From positions 4,004-68,003 of the forward strand of contig JBAZBR010000004.1 in assembly GCA_041671325.1 (NCBI GenBank): DNA of 64,000 nt, written 5' to 3'. The DNA comes from Patescibacteria group bacterium. GTDB lineage: Bacteria > Patescibacteriota > Patescibacteriia > PEXW01. Made by a program: the position numbers and the translations under genes. The notes beneath the pieces are model-generated. The model had not been told where the DNA came from. It did not search any database and saw only the letters and a program-made list of their open reading frames with translations. Shown here in pieces: positions 6,460 through 56,395 of the stretch; positions within the stretch are counted from its first letter, which is position 1, and every line of letters begins with the position of its first letter.

Positions 6460-6822
6460 TTAGTTAGTGACTTGGGCGGTCGTCTTTAGAACAAAGTTGA
6501 CGATTGCCCAAGAAAGCAGGACGACTATCAGGCCAACGACTGCCGAAGAGATCAGTCTTTTGGCCGTATCAGTTTTGTCCTCATTGCCGCCAGAAGTTGC
6601 CAAGGAAAAAACACCGTAAAGAATTACTACTAAGGCGATTAAACCCAATAAACCCAGAATAAAGCTAACAACATTCAAAATAGTTTGTTTCAGGTCTGTG
6701 GAAGTAAAACCCAGCGAGCCGGCAAAAGTCGTGTCAAAAGACACGGCCAAAGCCATGGCTGGCAGGGCTATAACGGTTAAGCTTATTAAGGTAGCAAAAA
6801 GGTATTTGTTAGGTTTTTTCAT
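6460..6822 (-). CDS. VirB2/TrbC-like pilin family protein (paralog 2)
   Basis: Signal peptide ending ...AMALA, then VSFDTTFAGSLGFTSTDLK, two TM helices and a GGNEDK motif. Confidence 0.5.
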   Translation of the reverse strand: MKKPNKYLFATLISLTVIALPAMALAVSFDTTFAGSLGFTSTDLKQTILNVVSFILGLLGLIALVVILYGVFSLATSGGNEDKTDTAKRLISSAVVGLIVVLLSWAIVNFVLKTTAQVTN

Positions 6823-7200
6823 TTATAATCCGCTTGGGCTCCCGGCTACTTGGTTGGCTGTTTTAAGCACAAAATTCACGATTGCCCAAGCCAGCAAGAC
6901 AATAACCAAACCAACTGAGGCTGAAGAAATTATCTGTTTGGCTTTGTCTACTTTGTCCTCATTGCCGCCTGCAGTCATCCAAATAAATCCAGCATAAAGA
7001 ATAAAGACAACGGCAATCAAGCCCAAGAGGCCTAAGACGAAGGTAATAACATTCAATACGGCCTGTTTTAAGTCTACCGAGGTAAAACCCAGCGAGCCGG
7101 CAAAAGTCGTGTCAAAAGACACGGCCATGGCAGCCATTGGCAAGGCTAGGCTAATTAATGACAAACCGAGAGCGGCAAGGTGTTTGTTAGTAAGTTTCAT
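6823..7200 (-). CDS. VirB2/TrbC-like pilin family protein (paralog 3)
   Basis: Same architecture. More than 70% identical to its neighbours in the VSFDTTFAGSLGFTS...LLAWAIVNFVLKT core. Confidence 0.5.
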   Translation of the reverse strand: MKLTNKHLAALGLSLISLALPMAAMAVSFDTTFAGSLGFTSVDLKQAVLNVITFVLGLLGLIAVVFILYAGFIWMTAGGNEDKVDKAKQIISSASVGLVIVLLAWAIVNFVLKTANQVAGSPSGL

Positions 7201-7305
7201 ATACCCTTATATTAACGCAATTTGCCGGAGAATTACAATAGCTATTACTAAAAACCCCCAGGTTTTAGCCGAAAGGGTTTTTAGTTTAATTAATAATTAT
7301 GTTAA

Positions 7306-7674
7306 TTAGGCGGTCACTTGATTGGTAGTCTTCAACACGAAGTTGACGATCGCCCAAGCCAGCAAAACCACAACTAAACCGATACAAGCTGAAGAAATGA
7401 TTTTCTTAGCTGAATCAACCTTATCTTCATTGCCACCCGCAGTCAGCCAGATAAAGCCACCGTAAAGAATCATGATAACCGCGATCAAGCCCAAGAGGCC
7501 TAATACAAAGGTAATCACGTTCAAAATCGTTGCCTTCAAATCAGTTGAAGTGAAGCCCAATGAACCGGCAAAAGTAGTATCAAAAGACACGGCTAAAGCC
7601 GCTATTGGTAAGGCCATTACACCCAGGGTTGCAGCGGTTGCAATTAAATATTTTTTGTTTAATTTCATAAACAC
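7306..7674 (-). CDS. VirB2/TrbC-like pilin family protein (paralog 4)
   Basis: Same architecture as the previous three genes. Confidence 0.5.
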   Translation of the reverse strand: MFMKLNKKYLIATAATLGVMALPIAALAVSFDTTFAGSLGFTSTDLKATILNVITFVLGLLGLIAVIMILYGGFIWLTAGGNEDKVDSAKKIISSACIGLVVVLLAWAIVNFVLKTTNQVTA

Positions 7675-7865: not shown

Positions 7866-8100
7866 GGTCCCCGTAAATCAGGCGCGCAAGCCCGCGAAAG
7901 CGGGATGAGCACGGATTTACGGGGAGAGGGGCACACTAATAGGGTCCCCACGAACGAGTAGCGGACCCCGCGGCCGCGGGGGAGTACGCATCTGCGGGGA
8001 GAGGGGCACTAAAAGGCTTTCTAAGAATAGGGGTCCCCATAAACGTGGCACGGAGCGGAGCGAGTACGCGTTTATGGGGAAAAGCGGCACATTTGTGGAG
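7866..8100. repeat. Three tandem ~77-88-nt hairpin units with conserved GGGTCCCC and GGGGAGAGGGGCAC flanks
   Basis: Unit stems are CCCCGTAAATC/GATTTACGGGG and CCCCATAAACG/CGTTTATGGGG; the middle unit is degenerate. The array lies in a divergent intergenic region, and the overlapping minus-strand ORF 7917-8114 looks spurious. Confidence 0.5.
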
Positions 8101-20731: not shown

Positions 20732-20884
20732 TGTCATCCCGAGCCTTGCCGACCTGCCCGCCGAACTAGCATGGTCCAGCCTTCGCAGCCGCTTCGGCGG
20801 AGTAGGCCAGGCGGGGGGATCCCGATAAGATAACCCGAGATTCCCCCACTCGCCCTCGAAGACTCGGGCTCGATCGGAATGACA
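20732..20884. repeat. MITE/REP-like imperfect palindromic element (TGTCATCCCGAGCC...GGCTCGATCGGAATGACA)
   Basis: The terminal inverted repeats were read directly. The internal GACCTGCCCGCC motif is shared (as a reverse complement) with the elements at 27025 and 35837. Confidence 0.55.
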
Positions 20885-20895
20885 GAAGGATCATA

Positions 20896-21195
20896 ATGAC
20901 ACGTAATAATACGAGAAAGCACAAATATTATGTTTATATGATGGCAAGCAAGAGTGGCGTGTTGTATATTGGCGTAACAAATAGTTTGATACACAGAGTT
21001 CTTGAACATAAAAACGGTTTGGTCGAAGGATTTACTAAAAAGTATAAATGCCAAAAACTGGTTTACTATGAAGAAACCGATGATATTAGTGCGGCAATCG
21101 CCAGAGAGAAACAATTAAAAAAATGGCGAAGAGAAAAGAAAGTTAAATTGATAGATACAATTAATCCGGGTTGGAAAGATTTAAGCGAGGAATAA
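20896..21195 (+). CDS. GIY-YIG nuclease family protein
   Basis: YYVYMMASKSGVLYIGVTNSLIHRVLEHKNG contains the GIY-YIG motif. The gene is flanked on both sides by MITE-like elements. Confidence 0.7.
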   Translation: MTRNNTRKHKYYVYMMASKSGVLYIGVTNSLIHRVLEHKNGLVEGFTKKYKCQKLVYYEETDDISAAIAREKQLKKWRREKKVKLIDTINPGWKDLSEE

Positions 21196-21202
21196 TTTCC
21201 TT

Positions 21203-21303
21203 TGTCATTTCGAGCGAAGCGTAGCGGAGCCGAGAAATCTAATTATCTCTAAAGGAGATTCCTCCGCTACAGTCGCCTTTGGCTCCTTCCGGTCGGAATG
21301 ACA
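21203..21303. repeat. MITE/REP-like palindromic element (TGTCATTTCGAGCGAAG...CTTCCGGTCGGAATGACA)
   Basis: Terminal inverted repeats read directly. It lies immediately 3' of the GIY-YIG gene. Confidence 0.55.
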
Positions 21304-26867: not shown

Positions 26868-27010
26868 GTCCCTCTCCCTCTGGGAGAGGGTGCCGGAGGC
26901 GGTGGTGCCTGCCCGCCGTACTTCGTCTGGCGAAGGCAGGCGGGAGGGTTACTCGGAAATACAAATTATATCGTGAACCTCACCCCAGCCCTCTCCTATA
27001 TAGGAGAGGG
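26868..27010. repeat. Hairpin-pair repeat element (CCCTCTCCCTCTGGGAGAGGG ... CCCTCTCCTATATAGGAGAGGG)
   Basis: Two matching GGGAGAGGG-type hairpins bracket a GC-rich core. The overlapping ORF 26835-27044 is probably spurious. Confidence 0.45.
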
Positions 27011-27024
27011 GGATTTTAATTACG

Positions 27025-27208
27025 TCATTGCGACCCCGACGTAAGTCAGGGGAAGCAATTTTTTGGATTTGTCATCCTGAATCAACCAAATGGCGGATGA
27101 AGGATCTTTATAAATATTGTATTTATGAGGATTCTCCCGCCTACCTCGCCAAGGCGAGTTCAGTGGGCAGGTCGTCGTCCGACGTACGTCGGAACTCCTC
27201 AGAATGAC
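27025..27208. repeat. MITE/REP-like palindromic element (GTCATTGCGACCCCGACGTA...TACGTCGGAACTCCTCAGAATGACA)
   Basis: The terminal inverted repeats and the internal CTCGCCAAGGCGAG and GGGCAGGTCG motifs are shared with other copies. Confidence 0.5.
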
Positions 27209-27333
27209 AGAAAAAGAAAAAGGCGAACCACCCGGTTCGCCTCAAATGTATATTCGCATCTTGACACTAGGCGTGGCTGGTTTAGGATTGGAGCATAGGT
27301 ATTTTTCTGATTTCGTAATTAACTTTTAAATAT

Positions 27334-31161: not shown

Positions 31162-31362
31162 ATAGGGACACCCCATCTTTAAAATAGGGTTTAAGGAGGG
31201 CATCCTCCATAGTCCCGCGACTGCGGGACGAAGGAGGATTCGCTTTGGAGGGTTACGCTCATGAAAAAATTCGATGTGGTGCTATAAGGATAAGACTACC
31301 GGGATAAAAATAATCGTGGTATCCTTAACTTATTATTAATCATTAATAAAACCTGAAAGGAG

Positions 31363-34592: not shown

Positions 34593-34655
34593 AGGTTTTA
34601 ATTATATCATTCGCACAAAAAATCAGGCCATCCGTTTTAGCGGATGGCCGTAAAT

Positions 34656-35024
34656 TTACTCAACGAGTTGCAAGATAATCAGGCGGTGCATATCGTGTTT
34701 TTGCCCGAGTGATACCTTAACAAGGCGGGCAAATTGTAAATCATGGAAAATGATTTCTCGATTCATGCCCCCGGCCATCATGGCTGGACTTTTGGTGACT
34801 TTGTCCAGCATATAATACTTGCCAAGCCCTGATTTGAAAGAAGCAAGGCCAAGTGCTTCAAGTGCTTTGACACAGTCGTCAAATTCATCTGTTTGAGCTT
34901 GGCCCATCGTATTTTCGGGACCGGTAATTGACCCATACCAAGCTACTCTCAGTTTTTCGGCTAAATCTTGAAGTTCAGCTGAAGACATTTCTTGCGGAAC
35001 GGTCTTTTTCAAAATCACCTCCAT
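34656..35024 (-). CDS. Hypothetical protein (122 aa)
   Basis: Clean ORF. No motif recognised. Confidence 0.4.
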   Translation of the reverse strand: MEVILKKTVPQEMSSAELQDLAEKLRVAWYGSITGPENTMGQAQTDEFDDCVKALEALGLASFKSGLGKYYMLDKVTKSPAMMAGGMNREIIFHDLQFARLVKVSLGQKHDMHRLIILQLVE

Positions 35025-35134
35025 TTTAGATTTTTCTTTATCTGTCGCAAAATTAACACAAGAAATTTAATATGTCAATGATTTTTTTAACATCAAAAAT
35101 CAGGCCATCCGTTTTAGCGGATGGCCTCATGAGG

Positions 35135-35836: not shown

Positions 35837-35998
35837 TGTCATTGCGAGCGACTCCGCCGCCGCGGGGAGGAGTGCGGCAGTCTCAAAAGAAATGGGAGAT
35901 TGCTCCCGCCTGGCCTACTCCGCTGAAGCGGCTGCGAAGGCTGGACCTCGCCAAGGCGAGTACGGCGGGCAGGTCGTCTCTGCCTACGGCAGATCCTC
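35837..35998. repeat. MITE/REP-like palindromic element (TGTCATTGCGAGCGAC...GATCCTCGCAATAACA)
   Basis: Terminal inverted repeats plus the CTCGCCAAGGCGAG and GGCGGGCAGGTCG core shared with 27025 and 20732. Confidence 0.55.
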
Positions 35999-36044
35999 GC
36001 AATAACAATGGGAATTTAGCGGTAAAGACTTTTTAATTAAATGA

Positions 36045-39207: not shown

Positions 39208-39397
39208 AAGATATCTTAAGTTTAAACTTCATAAGCAAGATTCACTATACCAATGAAGCTCAATTAATAAAAGATTTTTTGTGTTCGCTTCATACCCGCC
39301 TACGCCAAGGCTTCGGCCGACGAAGGTCGGCGGGTTATCAGCCCTAGGGATTTTTTGTGGAATTAGCAAAGTCGTAGCTGGAGGCTGATAAAAATAA

Positions 39398-45403: not shown

Positions 45404-45475
45404 GCTCGTTTCGTGCTTCACCCTGCGTGAGCGCGCTTTTCGCTTGCTCACTTCAGGTTACGCACGAAGCCTCGC
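45404..45475 (+). ncRNA. Conserved structured element immediately 3' of a tRNA (copy 2 of 2)
   Basis: GCTCGTTTCGTGCTTCACCCTGCGTGAGCGCGCTTTTCGCTTGCTCAC...GCACGAAGCCTCGC has the same nested stems as the copy at 1130-1200. A terminator-like hairpin follows at 45549-45585 (CCCCAATTTTTTATTAAAAAATTGGGG). Confidence 0.4.
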
Positions 45476-45690
45476 ATTCCCGACAAACCCGTACTCGCTC
45501 CGCTGCGTTCCTGGTTTGTCGGGTCAGGTTTCACAAACGTGTCGCTTACCCCAATTTTTTATTAAAAAATTGGGGCCCCCCGGGTTTTAGTTTGCTTTTT
45601 TATCCTTAAAGAGAGAAAATAAAAAGGCACACCCTTAAACAAATAAGGGTTTAAAGCATTACAAAATCTCAATAATTAACCAAAATAATT

Positions 45691-49967: not shown

Positions 49968-51719
49968 ATGGACAATAATCAACCGGCGACACTAAAAACC
50001 TCGCCAAAACCAAAAAAATTAATCATTATCGTTGTGATTGCAGTTTTAGTCATCGGGGGAGCGGTGGCCGCCTTTGCCTTCATGGGAAAATCAAAAGATG
50101 CTGGCAAGACAACCAACACAACTTCAACCAATTCCGCCTCCAGCAGTAATGCCGCTGAAAACGTAAATACCACAAACTCGCCAGCCGTCCAAAATTCCAA
50201 CACAACCGTCTCCACCGTCGGCAAGGTGCTCGGCCAAAGTACTGGCAGCCTGCCTTATGCCGCCATTGATGAAGCCCATGTCGCTTCAGCAGTCATTGAC
50301 AGTAACGGCGGCGTCATCACCGCTACCCTGCCCAAAAACATAACCGCGTACCTTATCCTGCCGGAGGGCGAAGTAATCCAGGAGGCTTTTGTCAGCCTGA
50401 TCCCTTATACGGCCATGCCTTCGGGCCAGAAGCACGGCTATCTTTCAGATGAGCTCGGCTACGGCGTGCAGGTACAAATAAAAAGCCTACAGATGGGCGT
50501 CCGGGGCTATTTGGTTTTTGATACCACTGGCGGTATTGCCACTTCAGAGGCGGTTGCCAAGGAAAAATACTTCAACCGTTGCGACCCGAATTTCACTTGG
50601 TTTGACCCCTACCTTTGCGCCAAAAAGAATAAAGTTTCCGCCTCGACTGTCGTGACCAAGGATCTTACGGTCATCACGCCGATCCATGCGGCAAAATTAA
50701 ACAGCCTGGTCTTTCCCCGAAACACCATCCCCACGGGCATTAATGGGTTGGTGGCCTTGCCCATCAAGGGCGGCGACGTGTTCATACCCCAAAAAGTTGA
50801 CCAAGCGCTAGTAGATAAATTAACCCAGGATGGCCTCAGTAAATACAGCAGTATCACCCAAAAGTTGGAAGCCACCGGCTTGGCCCTGGCCTGGGGCGGC
50901 AATAAATTTTCACAGGAACAGCTGAAATTAATCAGATATCTGGCGGAAGAAAATTACTACCAGGAAGCAATCAAGGCGATAGCTATTTCCCAGCAATTTT
51001 CGAATTTGCTTGGGGCCGGCAGCCTGACTATTACGCGTGGAGAGTTTGACGACATGACCAATGAGGAACTAAAGGCTGACATTGACGAGAATCTGGTTGA
51101 CCTGGCAAAAATATTTCTTAAAGACGCCCAGGAAGTCACCCAAAAATTCGGTTTTGGCATTAAATCCATTACAGCGGCCGCCGCGATCAGCGATGCCGCC
51201 CAATTGGGCGTGGCCGGGGCCAGCCAAGCGCTCGGCACGGTCAGGAGCAATATTGAGAGCATTGGCACGTCGGATTCGACTTCCCTGGGCAGGCGCAGTA
51301 GCGCGTTGGAAAGTTCCGACTACACAAATTCCGGCGGCGGCGAACCGCAGATTACCCCCGAGATCCTGCAAGGCATGGCCAGAGACGTGATTAACCGCGT
51401 TTGGGCCGATCCCAAAGCGACGATTAAGGATATATTGAACGCTATGTCTCTGGCTCGTGCCACCGCCCTGGACAATGAGGATCAGATAATCAATGAGGGG
51501 CTGGAAAAAATCACGAAAATTTTGGAGCAAATGCTCAAAGATGCCGTCTGGGCCAAGGACTTTTTCGATATCGCCGCCATTGCCAAGATGCTGGGCCTGG
51601 ATGACCTTGCCGATGACGCCATCGCCAAAGGCAAAAAAGCCCCTATCTCGCAAAAACTCTGCGACCTGGTAAAAAAGAACTTAAGCAACTTCGGCCTCAA
51701 TAAATGCAGTATTGAATAA
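49968..51719 (+). CDS. Membrane-anchored extracytoplasmic hypothetical protein (583 aa)
   Basis: N-terminal TM helix, a Ser/Thr/Asn-rich linker, and an Ala-rich C-terminal region. Confidence 0.5.
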   Translation: MDNNQPATLKTSPKPKKLIIIVVIAVLVIGGAVAAFAFMGKSKDAGKTTNTTSTNSASSSNAAENVNTTNSPAVQNSNTTVSTVGKVLGQSTGSLPYAAIDEAHVASAVIDSNGGVITATLPKNITAYLILPEGEVIQEAFVSLIPYTAMPSGQKHGYLSDELGYGVQVQIKSLQMGVRGYLVFDTTGGIATSEAVAKEKYFNRCDPNFTWFDPYLCAKKNKVSASTVVTKDLTVITPIHAAKLNSLVFPRNTIPTGINGLVALPIKGGDVFIPQKVDQALVDKLTQDGLSKYSSITQKLEATGLALAWGGNKFSQEQLKLIRYLAEENYYQEAIKAIAISQQFSNLLGAGSLTITRGEFDDMTNEELKADIDENLVDLAKIFLKDAQEVTQKFGFGIKSITAAAAISDAAQLGVAGASQALGTVRSNIESIGTSDSTSLGRRSSALESSDYTNSGGGEPQITPEILQGMARDVINRVWADPKATIKDILNAMSLARATALDNEDQIINEGLEKITKILEQMLKDAVWAKDFFDIAAIAKMLGLDDLADDAIAKGKKAPISQKLCDLVKKNLSNFGLNKCSIE

Positions 51720-51853
51720 TTTAAAGATTATAATTGCCTCGTCCCTTTCGACTCCTTGCCATGACAATAATAAATAACCCGTCATTGCGAGCCCCCGCTT
51801 TTTGGCGGGGGGGGTGTGGCAATCTTTAACTATAGTAAACTAACATCCATACT

Positions 51854-55298: not shown

Positions 55299-55931
55299 AT
55301 GACTCAGCGGCGTATATACCAAGATGAATTTCCATATTTCGTAACTTTTCGGACGCTTGATAGCCAACCCTTGTTTGAGGATGAAAAAATGGCGGAGTTG
55401 TTTCGGCGCGAATTATTTGTATCGGCAAAAATCAAACATTTTGATATTTTTGCGTACCAAATAATGCCCGATCATATCCATGTTTTAACGCAAATAAATG
55501 TCGAGCGCACGCTTGAGAGCATGCGCTCGGGTGACTCGGGTGACGGGGATGGTGAAGATATCGTGAGCATGCGCTCGGGGGTTGGTAAAAATATTTTGTC
55601 ATCAAAACCCGAACGCACGTTCTCTAACGTGCGTGAGGGGGAAATCCACCCGATCTCCGCCAAAAGCACCCTTTCGAGGGTGCGGACCAAAACTCCCAAA
55701 TATAATATTTCCGATTTGATGCAATCCATCAAAGGCAATTTTTCCCGGAAAATCCATGAAGGCAATATTTGGCAAAAACGGTTTTATACCAAAATCGTGA
55801 ATACCCATAAATATTTGGAAACCGTGATTAATTATATTGAAAACAATCCAATCAAAGCGGAATTGCCGAAAAGATATCAACAAAAACCCTACCAATATTT
55901 CAATTGGCCGAAAATTCACGCCTTGTTTTGA
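55299..55931 (+). CDS. IS200/IS605-family Y1 (HuH) transposase-like protein, REP-associated tyrosine transposase candidate, with an in-frame low-complexity insertion
   Basis: MPDHIHVL carries the HuH motif. SDLMQSIKGNFSRKI...WQKRFY is the central IS200 block, and NYIENNP holds the catalytic Tyr. An extra ~70-aa Ser/Gly/Asp/Arg-rich segment is encoded by hairpin-forming DNA at 55500-55690. Confidence 0.65.
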   Translation: MTQRRIYQDEFPYFVTFRTLDSQPLFEDEKMAELFRRELFVSAKIKHFDIFAYQIMPDHIHVLTQINVERTLESMRSGDSGDGDGEDIVSMRSGVGKNILSSKPERTFSNVREGEIHPISAKSTLSRVRTKTPKYNISDLMQSIKGNFSRKIHEGNIWQKRFYTKIVNTHKYLETVINYIENNPIKAELPKRYQQKPYQYFNWPKIHALF

Positions 55932-56152: not shown

Positions 56153-56395
56153 ATGTATTACCTCTATATTTTGAAATGCAAGGATAAGACGCTTTATACC
56201 GGCATTACCACAGATTTAAAAAGGCGTTTAGCTGAACATAACTCATCAAAACTCGGGGCAAAATATACCAAAGGCCGGAGGCCGGTTAAGTTGGTTTATA
56301 CTAAAAAATTTCGAACTCGGTCTACAGCAACAAAGACAGAAGCACGGATAAAAAATTTATCGCGGACAGAGAAACTGCGTTTAATTAAAAAGTAG
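56153..56395 (+). CDS. GIY-YIG nuclease family protein
   Basis: MYYLYILKCKDKTLYTGITTDLKRRLAEH. The gene starts on the nucleotide after the upstream stop codon (taaATG). Confidence 0.75.
   Translation: MYYLYILKCKDKTLYTGITTDLKRRLAEHNSSKLGAKYTKGRRPVKLVYTKKFRTRSTATKTEARIKNLSRTEKLRLIKK

Follow-up and report, generated by a model that had tools for sequence, protein, structure and literature searches.

CGTC-tagged repetitive extragenic palindromic (REP) sequences end in CGTC, often in TGTC, and feature stems that almost always begin with complementary A-T (Di Nocera, 2013; PMC3733652). They carry a short unpaired tail, occur mostly as inverted dimers in intergenic regions near the 3' ends of genes and fall into families, CGTC-1 to -4, which include dRS3 of Neisseria as well as RPE-4 and RPE-6 of Rickettsia; they were reported without a dedicated transposase or a partner of the REP-associated tyrosine transposase (RAYT) type (PMC3733652). 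The oriented Neisseria version has been described as NTS, with the consensus CGTCATTCCCGCGMAVGCGGGAATCYRG (Chenal, 2025; PMC11893778). Degenerate relatives of NTS, the SRM, flank ssnA, a gene for a 94-aa single-domain GIY-YIG protein (CDD cd10448), and at least one SRM is found near 71% of the ssnA homologues, with SRMs on both sides of 42%. SsnA binds the hairpin as single-stranded DNA (ssDNA) only and cuts a few nucleotides upstream of it, leaving double-stranded DNA (dsDNA), RNA and the opposite strand untouched. Binding depends critically on the C that follows the palindrome, and cutting likewise on the three bases in front of it, while the NTS loop can be removed or extended with cutting retained, SRMs of 20-50 nt being allowed in the text. 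In N. meningitidis, the Ssn system lowers transformation by NTS-bearing DNA, and the authors pointed out that NTS-ssnA-NTS resembles an insertion sequence (IS), drawing the analogy to RAYT and REP (PMC11893778). Here, a stretch of 64,000 nucleotides from a Patescibacteria genome (assembly GCA_041671325.1, contig JBAZBR010000004.1, positions 4,004 to 68,003; hereafter called the window, to which all unassigned coordinates refer) was analysed for its TGTCAT-ended palindromic repeats. These are very probably expanded, mostly dimeric SRM/NTS hairpins, i.e., CGTC/TGTC-tagged REPs, the partner of which is an Ssn-family GIY-YIG nuclease encoded at 20896-21195.

The system of the window matches the description of Ssn and SRM feature by feature, except for the published search pattern. 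Both feature the T/CGTC head, the AT-initiated pyrimidine-rich stem, the C after the palindrome, inverted repeats flanking a single-domain GIY-YIG gene of about 94-99 aa and a wide phylogenetic spread. The window differs in its heads-outward doublets of 100-170 bp and in its host, an uncultured member of the Patescibacteria (candidate phyla radiation, CPR). With the CGTC-tagged REPs, the repeats have in common the terminal CGTC or TGTC, the A-T start of the stem, the short unpaired tail, the inverted dimers and the intergenic position; those REPs, however, possess 8-9-bp stems and 4-5-nt loops and are found mainly in Alphaproteobacteria, whereas the units of the window carry long structured inserts as loops. 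This kind of system has been known since 2025, and the example presented here would be an expanded dimeric variant of it in a Patescibacteria genome.

The long elements of the window (100-170 bp) are doublets, each consisting of two inverted hairpin units with their heads outward. A unit begins with the T/CGTC head, followed by a 5-bp stem starting with AT, usually GA, an insert, usually GA again, the complementary stem and a C. The insert is variable, often structured and 15-75 nt long, and whole units measure 25-90 nt. Doublet A (20732-20884) comprises the units 20733-20821 (+, stem ATCCC/GGGAT) and 20839-20883 (-, stem ATTCC/GGAAT) and ends 12 nt upstream of the start codon of the ssn-like gene. 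Doublet B (21203-21303) starts 8 nt past the stop codon of this gene and consists of the units 21204-21239 (+, stem ATTTC/GAAAT) and 21257-21302 (-, stem ATTCC/GGAAT). Doublet C (27070-27209; units 27071-27106, +, stem ATCCT/AGGAT, and 27130-27208, -, stem ATTCT/AGAAT) is located downstream of polA and ends about 15 nt before a conserved terminator-like hairpin, GGCGAACC..GGTTCGCC. Before doublet C lies the single unit C1 (27023-27060, +), which reads CGTC-ATTGC-GA(CCCCGAC GTAA GTCAGGGG)AA-GCAAT. Doublet D (35837-36007), between the 3' end of uvrB and the start of the HD gene, features ATTGC stems in both units, the left partner being GCAGT with one mismatch. A further single unit, E (51780-51824, +), has the structure CGTC-ATTGC-GAG(CCCCCGC..GCGGGGG)..GCAAT-C. 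The heads are TGTC or CGTC in both units of A, B and C as well as in C1, E and the left unit of D, while the right head of D is mutated to TGTT; nine of the ten units end in the tail C, with C1 having a T instead.

That these repeats form a family, as proposed in the initial annotation, is borne out by alignment and by counts. The terminal motif GTCATTGCGAGC occurs 16 times in the window with up to two mismatches, compared to 3.6 +/- 1.8 times in shuffled sequences, and none of 100 shuffles reached 16. Doublets A (on the reverse strand), C and D align from end to end with the common layout TGTCATyssGA ... GGAATCTC (loop) GGGATTCC ... CCCGCCT (nested hairpins) GGCGGGCAGGTCG ... CTCGsAATGACA, and doublet B has the termini and the central hairpin in common with them. 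Doublets A and D agree over 43 nt at 98% and over another 30 nt at 80% identity, C and D over 34 nt at 91%; CTCGCCAAGGCGAG is restricted to C and D within the window. The family is therefore real, and the label REP-like or MITE-like (miniature inverted-repeat transposable element) is a fair one for palindromic repeats of intergenic spacers, the neighbouring genes being, as stated before, polA, uvrB, an HD-domain gene and a GIY-YIG gene. The list of copies needed some revision: A and B stood as given, the copy placed at 27025-27208 resolved into C1 and doublet C, and D turned out to extend to 36007. Among the supposed fragments, 31202-31248 (+; CATCCTCC..hairpin..GAAGGAGGATTC) features an SRM-like stem and lacks the GTC head, so that it is a degenerate or uncertain unit, and 39295-39334 has only the inner CCCGCC..GGCGGG module in common with the family.

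A structural finder for units (GTCA[TC], a 5-bp stem and its complement followed by C within 100 nt) detected 13 units in the window compared to 2.9 +/- 1.7 in 200 dinucleotide shuffles. A, B, C and E contain seven of the 13 units, and the units of D and C1 are each one base short of the definition. The stems ATTCC, ATTTC, ATCCC, ATCCT, ATTCT and ATTGC were each found with an exact partner. A stricter version demanding a perfect 6-bp stem remained at chance level, with seven hits in the window against 4.9 expected and none inside the elements, and was therefore replaced by the 5-bp stem with tail C. When folded as single strands, the termini are paired, and the elements exceed shuffled sequences modestly, with z between -1.7 and -4.2 (B, -3.4; C1, -4.2). 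An Rfam scan of the window returned two tRNAs only and no family for the repeats, and a full-text literature search with the terminal sequence retrieved nothing but unrelated primers.

The gene bracketed by doublets A and B (20896-21195, +) encodes a protein of 99 aa with a single GIY-YIG domain (Pfam PF01541, E = 1.3e-14, residues 10-82) and no other domain. It has 3472 homologues at E <= 0.001, mostly of 92-103 aa; among the matches listed, identity amounts to 57-76%, and those named by source span several phyla. Y24, R34, H38 and E71 do not vary across 30 homologues, and Y14 hardly does. In the 92-aa homologue P0055, the tyrosine of the YIG motif is residue 17 and the glutamate residue 64, the very numbers mutated in SsnA (Y17A, E64A); this match to the catalytic residues of SsnA (Y6, Y17, E64) was made by residue numbering and not by direct alignment with SsnA. 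Moreover, homologues that are 58-64% identical to the 99-aa protein are flanked by near-canonical NTS. Through the flanks of its homologues, the residue numbering and its low identity to the other small GIY-YIG proteins of the window, membership of the protein in the Ssn family (cd10448) is strongly, if indirectly, indicated. A sequence search of the PDB yielded no Ssn structure, with UPF0213 (1ywl, E = 5e-4) as the best match; NCBIfam returned nothing useful for this protein, and PADLOC matched neither it nor the RAYT-like protein of the window to a defence system. Two more small GIY-YIG genes, at 766-1038 (90 aa) and 56153-56395 (80 aa), are UPF0213-like and have no TGTCAT units; they share 47% identity with one another and only about 35% with the 99-aa protein. 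One of them lies directly upstream of tRNA-Leu, the other beside the RAYT-like gene and a DUF2196 gene.

The linkage of the repeats to this gene extends far beyond the window. It was surveyed at 80 homologous loci on contigs from one genome per species, the proteins being 54-66% identical to that of the window and originating from phyla including Proteobacteria, Chloroflexota, Acidobacteriota, Omnitrophota, Planctomycetota, Spirochaetota, Firmicutes, Cyanobacteria and CPR. The head motif reaches a density of 3.3 per kb up to 400 bp from the gene compared to 0.41 per kb further off, which is an 8-fold difference, and 48% of the proximal GTCA[TC] heads possess a stem partner as against 11% of the distal ones. 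At least one structural unit lies within 400 bp of the gene at 66 of the 80 loci, units are present on both sides at 52, and 44 show the layout of a '+' unit upstream and a '-' unit downstream. The gene is situated between complementary arms, TGTCATyyyGAgcg..cGAArrrATC - ORF - GATyyyTTCg..cgcTCrrrATGACA, and the same six stems as in the window dominate. Together with the position of A and B on either side of the gene in the window, this linkage across phyla indicates that it is the GIY-YIG gene, and not the RAYT gene, that tracks the repeats.

The composition of the surveyed units points in the same direction. T precedes GTC in 84% of the 253 units at the homologous loci, and the stems consist of AT followed by a pyrimidine-rich run; the finder imposed neither, and as both agree with the published mutagenesis, they support the assignment to Ssn. 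The tail C, by contrast, was imposed by the structural finder and lends no independent support in this survey. Compact motifs fitting the published SRM pattern occur in the same positions at 12 of the 80 loci, and one near-canonical NTS, TGTCATTCCCGCGAAGGCGGGAATCCAT, is found on both sides of its gene and agrees with the Neisseria NTS consensus at 26 of 28 positions. The expanded type with GA..GA is the majority form, accounting for 141 of the 253 units near the closest homologues, and is missed by the published pattern. The left unit of doublet B (37 nt) is identical at 36 of 37 positions to units in a metagenome-assembled genome of the Dehalococcoidia (Chloroflexota; L013), and a gammaproteobacterial copy (L077) differs from it mainly by a compensatory stem change from TTT/AAA to CCC/GGG.

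At some loci, units form long regular tandem arrays with alternating '+' and '-' units and periods of about 84-170 bp (L013, 2297-3580; L055, 2068-3008; L041, 976-1379). Such arrays, seen in Dehalococcoidia, Ruminococcaceae and Anaerolineales, adjoin or surround the ssn gene.

Judging from the biochemistry of SsnA (Chenal, 2025; PMC11893778), a unit of the window would fold whenever its DNA becomes single-stranded, i.e., during replication, during repair or in incoming transforming DNA. The nuclease, a monomer of about 100 aa, would bind the hairpin in a strand- and sequence-specific manner and hydrolyse the strand a few nucleotides 5' of the head, leaving dsDNA, RNA and the complementary strand uncut. 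Cuts would accordingly fall immediately outside the element on either strand, both in heads-outward doublets and in the SRM-ssn-SRM cassette. This would probably lead to the cutting of repeat-bearing ssDNA, which in Neisseria lowers the recombination of incoming DNA; the spread of the repeats may be a further outcome.

Several points weigh against the assignment of the repeats to an Ssn nuclease. The published SRM pattern, HGTCWYN(0-2)YYVSBRHN(0-5)WNVSBRGN(0-2)RNCYNB, has no match in the window (0.1 in shuffles), because the long inserts occupy the position of the loop. In contrast to NTS and SRM, the units are expanded to 25-90 nt, have an outer stem that is perfect over 5 bp only, and contain GA..GA as well as nested G+C-rich hairpins; they do not show the compact form of an 8-9-bp stem with a 4-5-nt loop and are accordingly filed as an expanded variant. 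The heads nearest to the ssn-like gene (A right, '-'; B left, '+') point inward, so that only the outer units provide the canonical layout. Furthermore, C1, E and the two units of D carry an ATTGC stem unlike the stems beside the ssn-like gene; these four units may be in decay or may depend on another Ssn paralogue. The folding z-scores of A, C and E are modest, and the placement of the protein in the Ssn family is indirect. Still, cutting by SsnA tolerates replacement or extension of the NTS loop (PMC11893778), so that the expanded units are plausible substrates.

Possibly, though this is doubtful, the SRM-ssn-SRM cassette behaves as a selfish mobile element from which the doublets devoid of a gene derive as non-autonomous, MITE-like versions; the GIY-YIG ssDNA nuclease would mobilise them in trans, by break-induced copying or by homing. 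Such mobility would add to the Ssn assignment rather than replace it. The gene-less doublets share the heads-outward architecture of the gene-bearing cassette, A and D are nearly identical over the 43 nt mentioned above though 15 kb apart, and at 13 of 56 loci the first 22 nt of a gene-flanking unit recur identically in another unit of the locus. The occurrence of units identical at 36 of 37 positions in Patescibacteria and Chloroflexota, the spread of 54-66% identical proteins over more than 15 phyla and the position of many homologues on short contigs or at contig ends likewise speak for mobility.

Polymorphic sites in relatives, which the initial annotation had suggested looking for, do exist among related Patescibacteria contigs with polA 69-89% identical. 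The site downstream of polA lies immediately 5' of the conserved terminator-like hairpin (aaaggcgaacc..). It holds doublet C in the window, a different doublet of 94 nt with ATTGC stems in L101 and a compact doublet with ATGCTGAA / ATCCCGAAC stems in L085 and L086, whereas L087 and L084 have nothing there; four genomes thus carry three different doublets and two carry none, and in L087 and L101 the flanks are alignable on both sides of the site. The situation downstream of holA is similar, with an intact single unit in L085, the head-less remnant 31202-31248 in the window and nothing in three relatives. In L084 and L087, the corresponding region lacks the ssn gene together with A and B, and a clean empty site for the cassette was not found, this region being rearranged in the closest relatives. 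These patterns would fit mobility with a site preference, short of proof.

Upstream of the peptidase gene in L084 (5130-5440), a different short open reading frame (ORF), which may encode a DUF559/Vsr-like endonuclease, occupies the place of the ssn cassette, and the A2M and Memo genes are missing there as well. A further observation concerns 26868-27010, downstream of polA, where the repeat feature had originally been taken to start. This segment is a separate cluster of hairpins (CCCTCTCCC..GGGAGAGGG, GCCTGCCCGCC..GGCGGGAGG, CCTCTCC..GGAGAGG) without TGTC heads. The closest relative (L084, 9650-9830; polA 89% identical) retains it in the corresponding position with changed arm sequences, and in kind the cluster is distinct from the TGTCAT repeats.

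Mobility of the cassette is opposed by the absence of target-site duplications at A-D and by the orientation of the heads, which, pointing outward, let each strand be cut once and so render an excision of the IS200/IS605 style impossible. The polymorphisms were moreover seen between genomes that are about 70% identical in polA, so that deletion or rapid divergence could also account for them. Experimental mobility is unreported, though the idea was raised by Chenal (2025; PMC11893778). That cassette and gene-less doublets constitute a mobile autonomous/non-autonomous pair with a GIY-YIG ssDNA nuclease of about 100 aa as the sole enzyme is rather unlikely. GIY-YIG enzymes are hydrolytic, and no strand-transfer reaction is known for them. 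If such a pair did exist, it would imply a mechanism of transposition or homing unlike that of any known IS family, along with a bias towards sites immediately 5' of terminator hairpins and frequent passage from one phylum to another, the reduced genomes of Patescibacteria being among the recipients.

The repeats could also be purely structural or regulatory hairpins, i.e., terminators, mRNA stabilisers or small RNAs without a dedicated protein partner, but this is very improbable. Their intergenic location, mostly at the 3' ends of genes (polA, uvrB and the gene at 49968-51719), would agree with such a function, and REP-type elements may stabilise transcripts (background in PMC3733652). Nevertheless, no Rfam family matches them, doublet C is followed by a separate conserved terminator hairpin, and neither the asymmetric head and the tail C nor the linkage to one gene family across phyla would be explained. 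SsnA, moreover, is inactive on RNA (PMC11893778).

Mobilisation of the repeats, as REP or REPIN elements, by the HUH tyrosine transposase of the RAYT type encoded at 55299-55931, which the initial annotation had put forward as plausible, is not supported and is highly improbable. The RAYT-like identity of the gene itself holds (NF047646, 85.2 bits against a cutoff of 80; Pfam Y1_Tnp), and the REP/REPIN-RAYT systems of the Escherichia coli and Pseudomonas type resemble the repeats described here in their short hairpins in inverted doublets and in a small enzyme gene bracketed by its own repeats, the enzyme acting on ssDNA hairpins. A RAYT linked to REPs normally has its own REPs on either side, but no TGTCAT units and no meaningful inverted repeats were found in the flanks of 55299-55931, and across the 80 loci the repeats track the GIY-YIG gene. 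In addition, the enzymes differ, a HUH tyrosine transposase there and a hydrolytic GIY-YIG nuclease here, and the heads are T/CGTC instead of the conserved GTAG expected of RAYT-linked REPs, CGTC REPs having been reported without a RAYT partner (PMC3733652). Co-occurrence provides no support either, as about 160 other fetched loci contained no RAYT homologue. The RAYT ORF, finally, is interrupted, its match to NF047646 being split into residues 3-69 and about 132-190. Between these parts (about 55500-55700) lies an in-frame insert of about 60 aa made up of short palindromes (CGAGCGCACGCT/AGCATGCGCTCG, CCCGAACGCACGTT/AACGTGCGTGAGGG, GCACCCTTTCGAGGGTGC), which has the look of hairpin repeats that entered a coding gene.

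MITEs derived from IS elements, such as Correia, RUP or ERIC-like elements, also measure 100-190 bp, possess terminal inverted repeats, lie in intergenic regions and generate spurious ORFs. The termini of the window elements differ in being self-folding hairpin units; direct repeats indicative of target-site duplication do not flank A-D, and no IS with TGTCAT ends was seen in the 64-kb window. Viruses are ruled out as the main carriers, with 18 loci in 2.9 million viral contigs, nine of them with units, and fragments of a duplicated gene are ruled out because the similarity is confined to short palindromic modules that are intergenic and occur in both orientations.

With the repeats read as expanded SRM/NTS hairpins of an Ssn nuclease, a class of repeats that generates spurious ORFs and is widespread in CPR genomes would be assigned to a characterised protein-DNA system, and their annotation would be directed to the Ssn nuclease and away from RAYT. 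The TGTCAT repeats would at the same time be the source of peptides with '...ARND...' or '...AMT...' motifs. As the published SRM pattern catches 12 of the 80 loci compared to 66 by the structural search, it misses a large class of expanded motifs, and the true spread of the Ssn system is probably underestimated. Besides, the polymorphisms at the polA and holA sites offer concrete loci for testing how such repeats multiply.

The window contains further repeats. A second, unrelated family (1130-1320 and 45404-45600) directly follows the CCA ends of tRNA-Leu and tRNA-Arg (GCTCGTTTCGTGCTTCG..CGTGAGCGCGCTT..); its copies are 80-85% identical over about 100 nt, with a further arm inverted at 8035-8081 and no Rfam match. 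A terminator-like hairpin occurs twice, at 34600-34649 and 35077-35126, with flanks in common (ATCAGGCCATCCGTTTTAGCGGATGGCC, 84% over 50 nt), and its copies bracket the minus-strand ORF 34656-35024. Moreover, 6460-7674 holds three paralogous ORFs in tandem on the minus strand, each of about 120 aa, with 70-74% DNA identity over 300 nt, and duplicated segments are present at 3841-3924/5312-5395 and 4519-4591/5959-6031.

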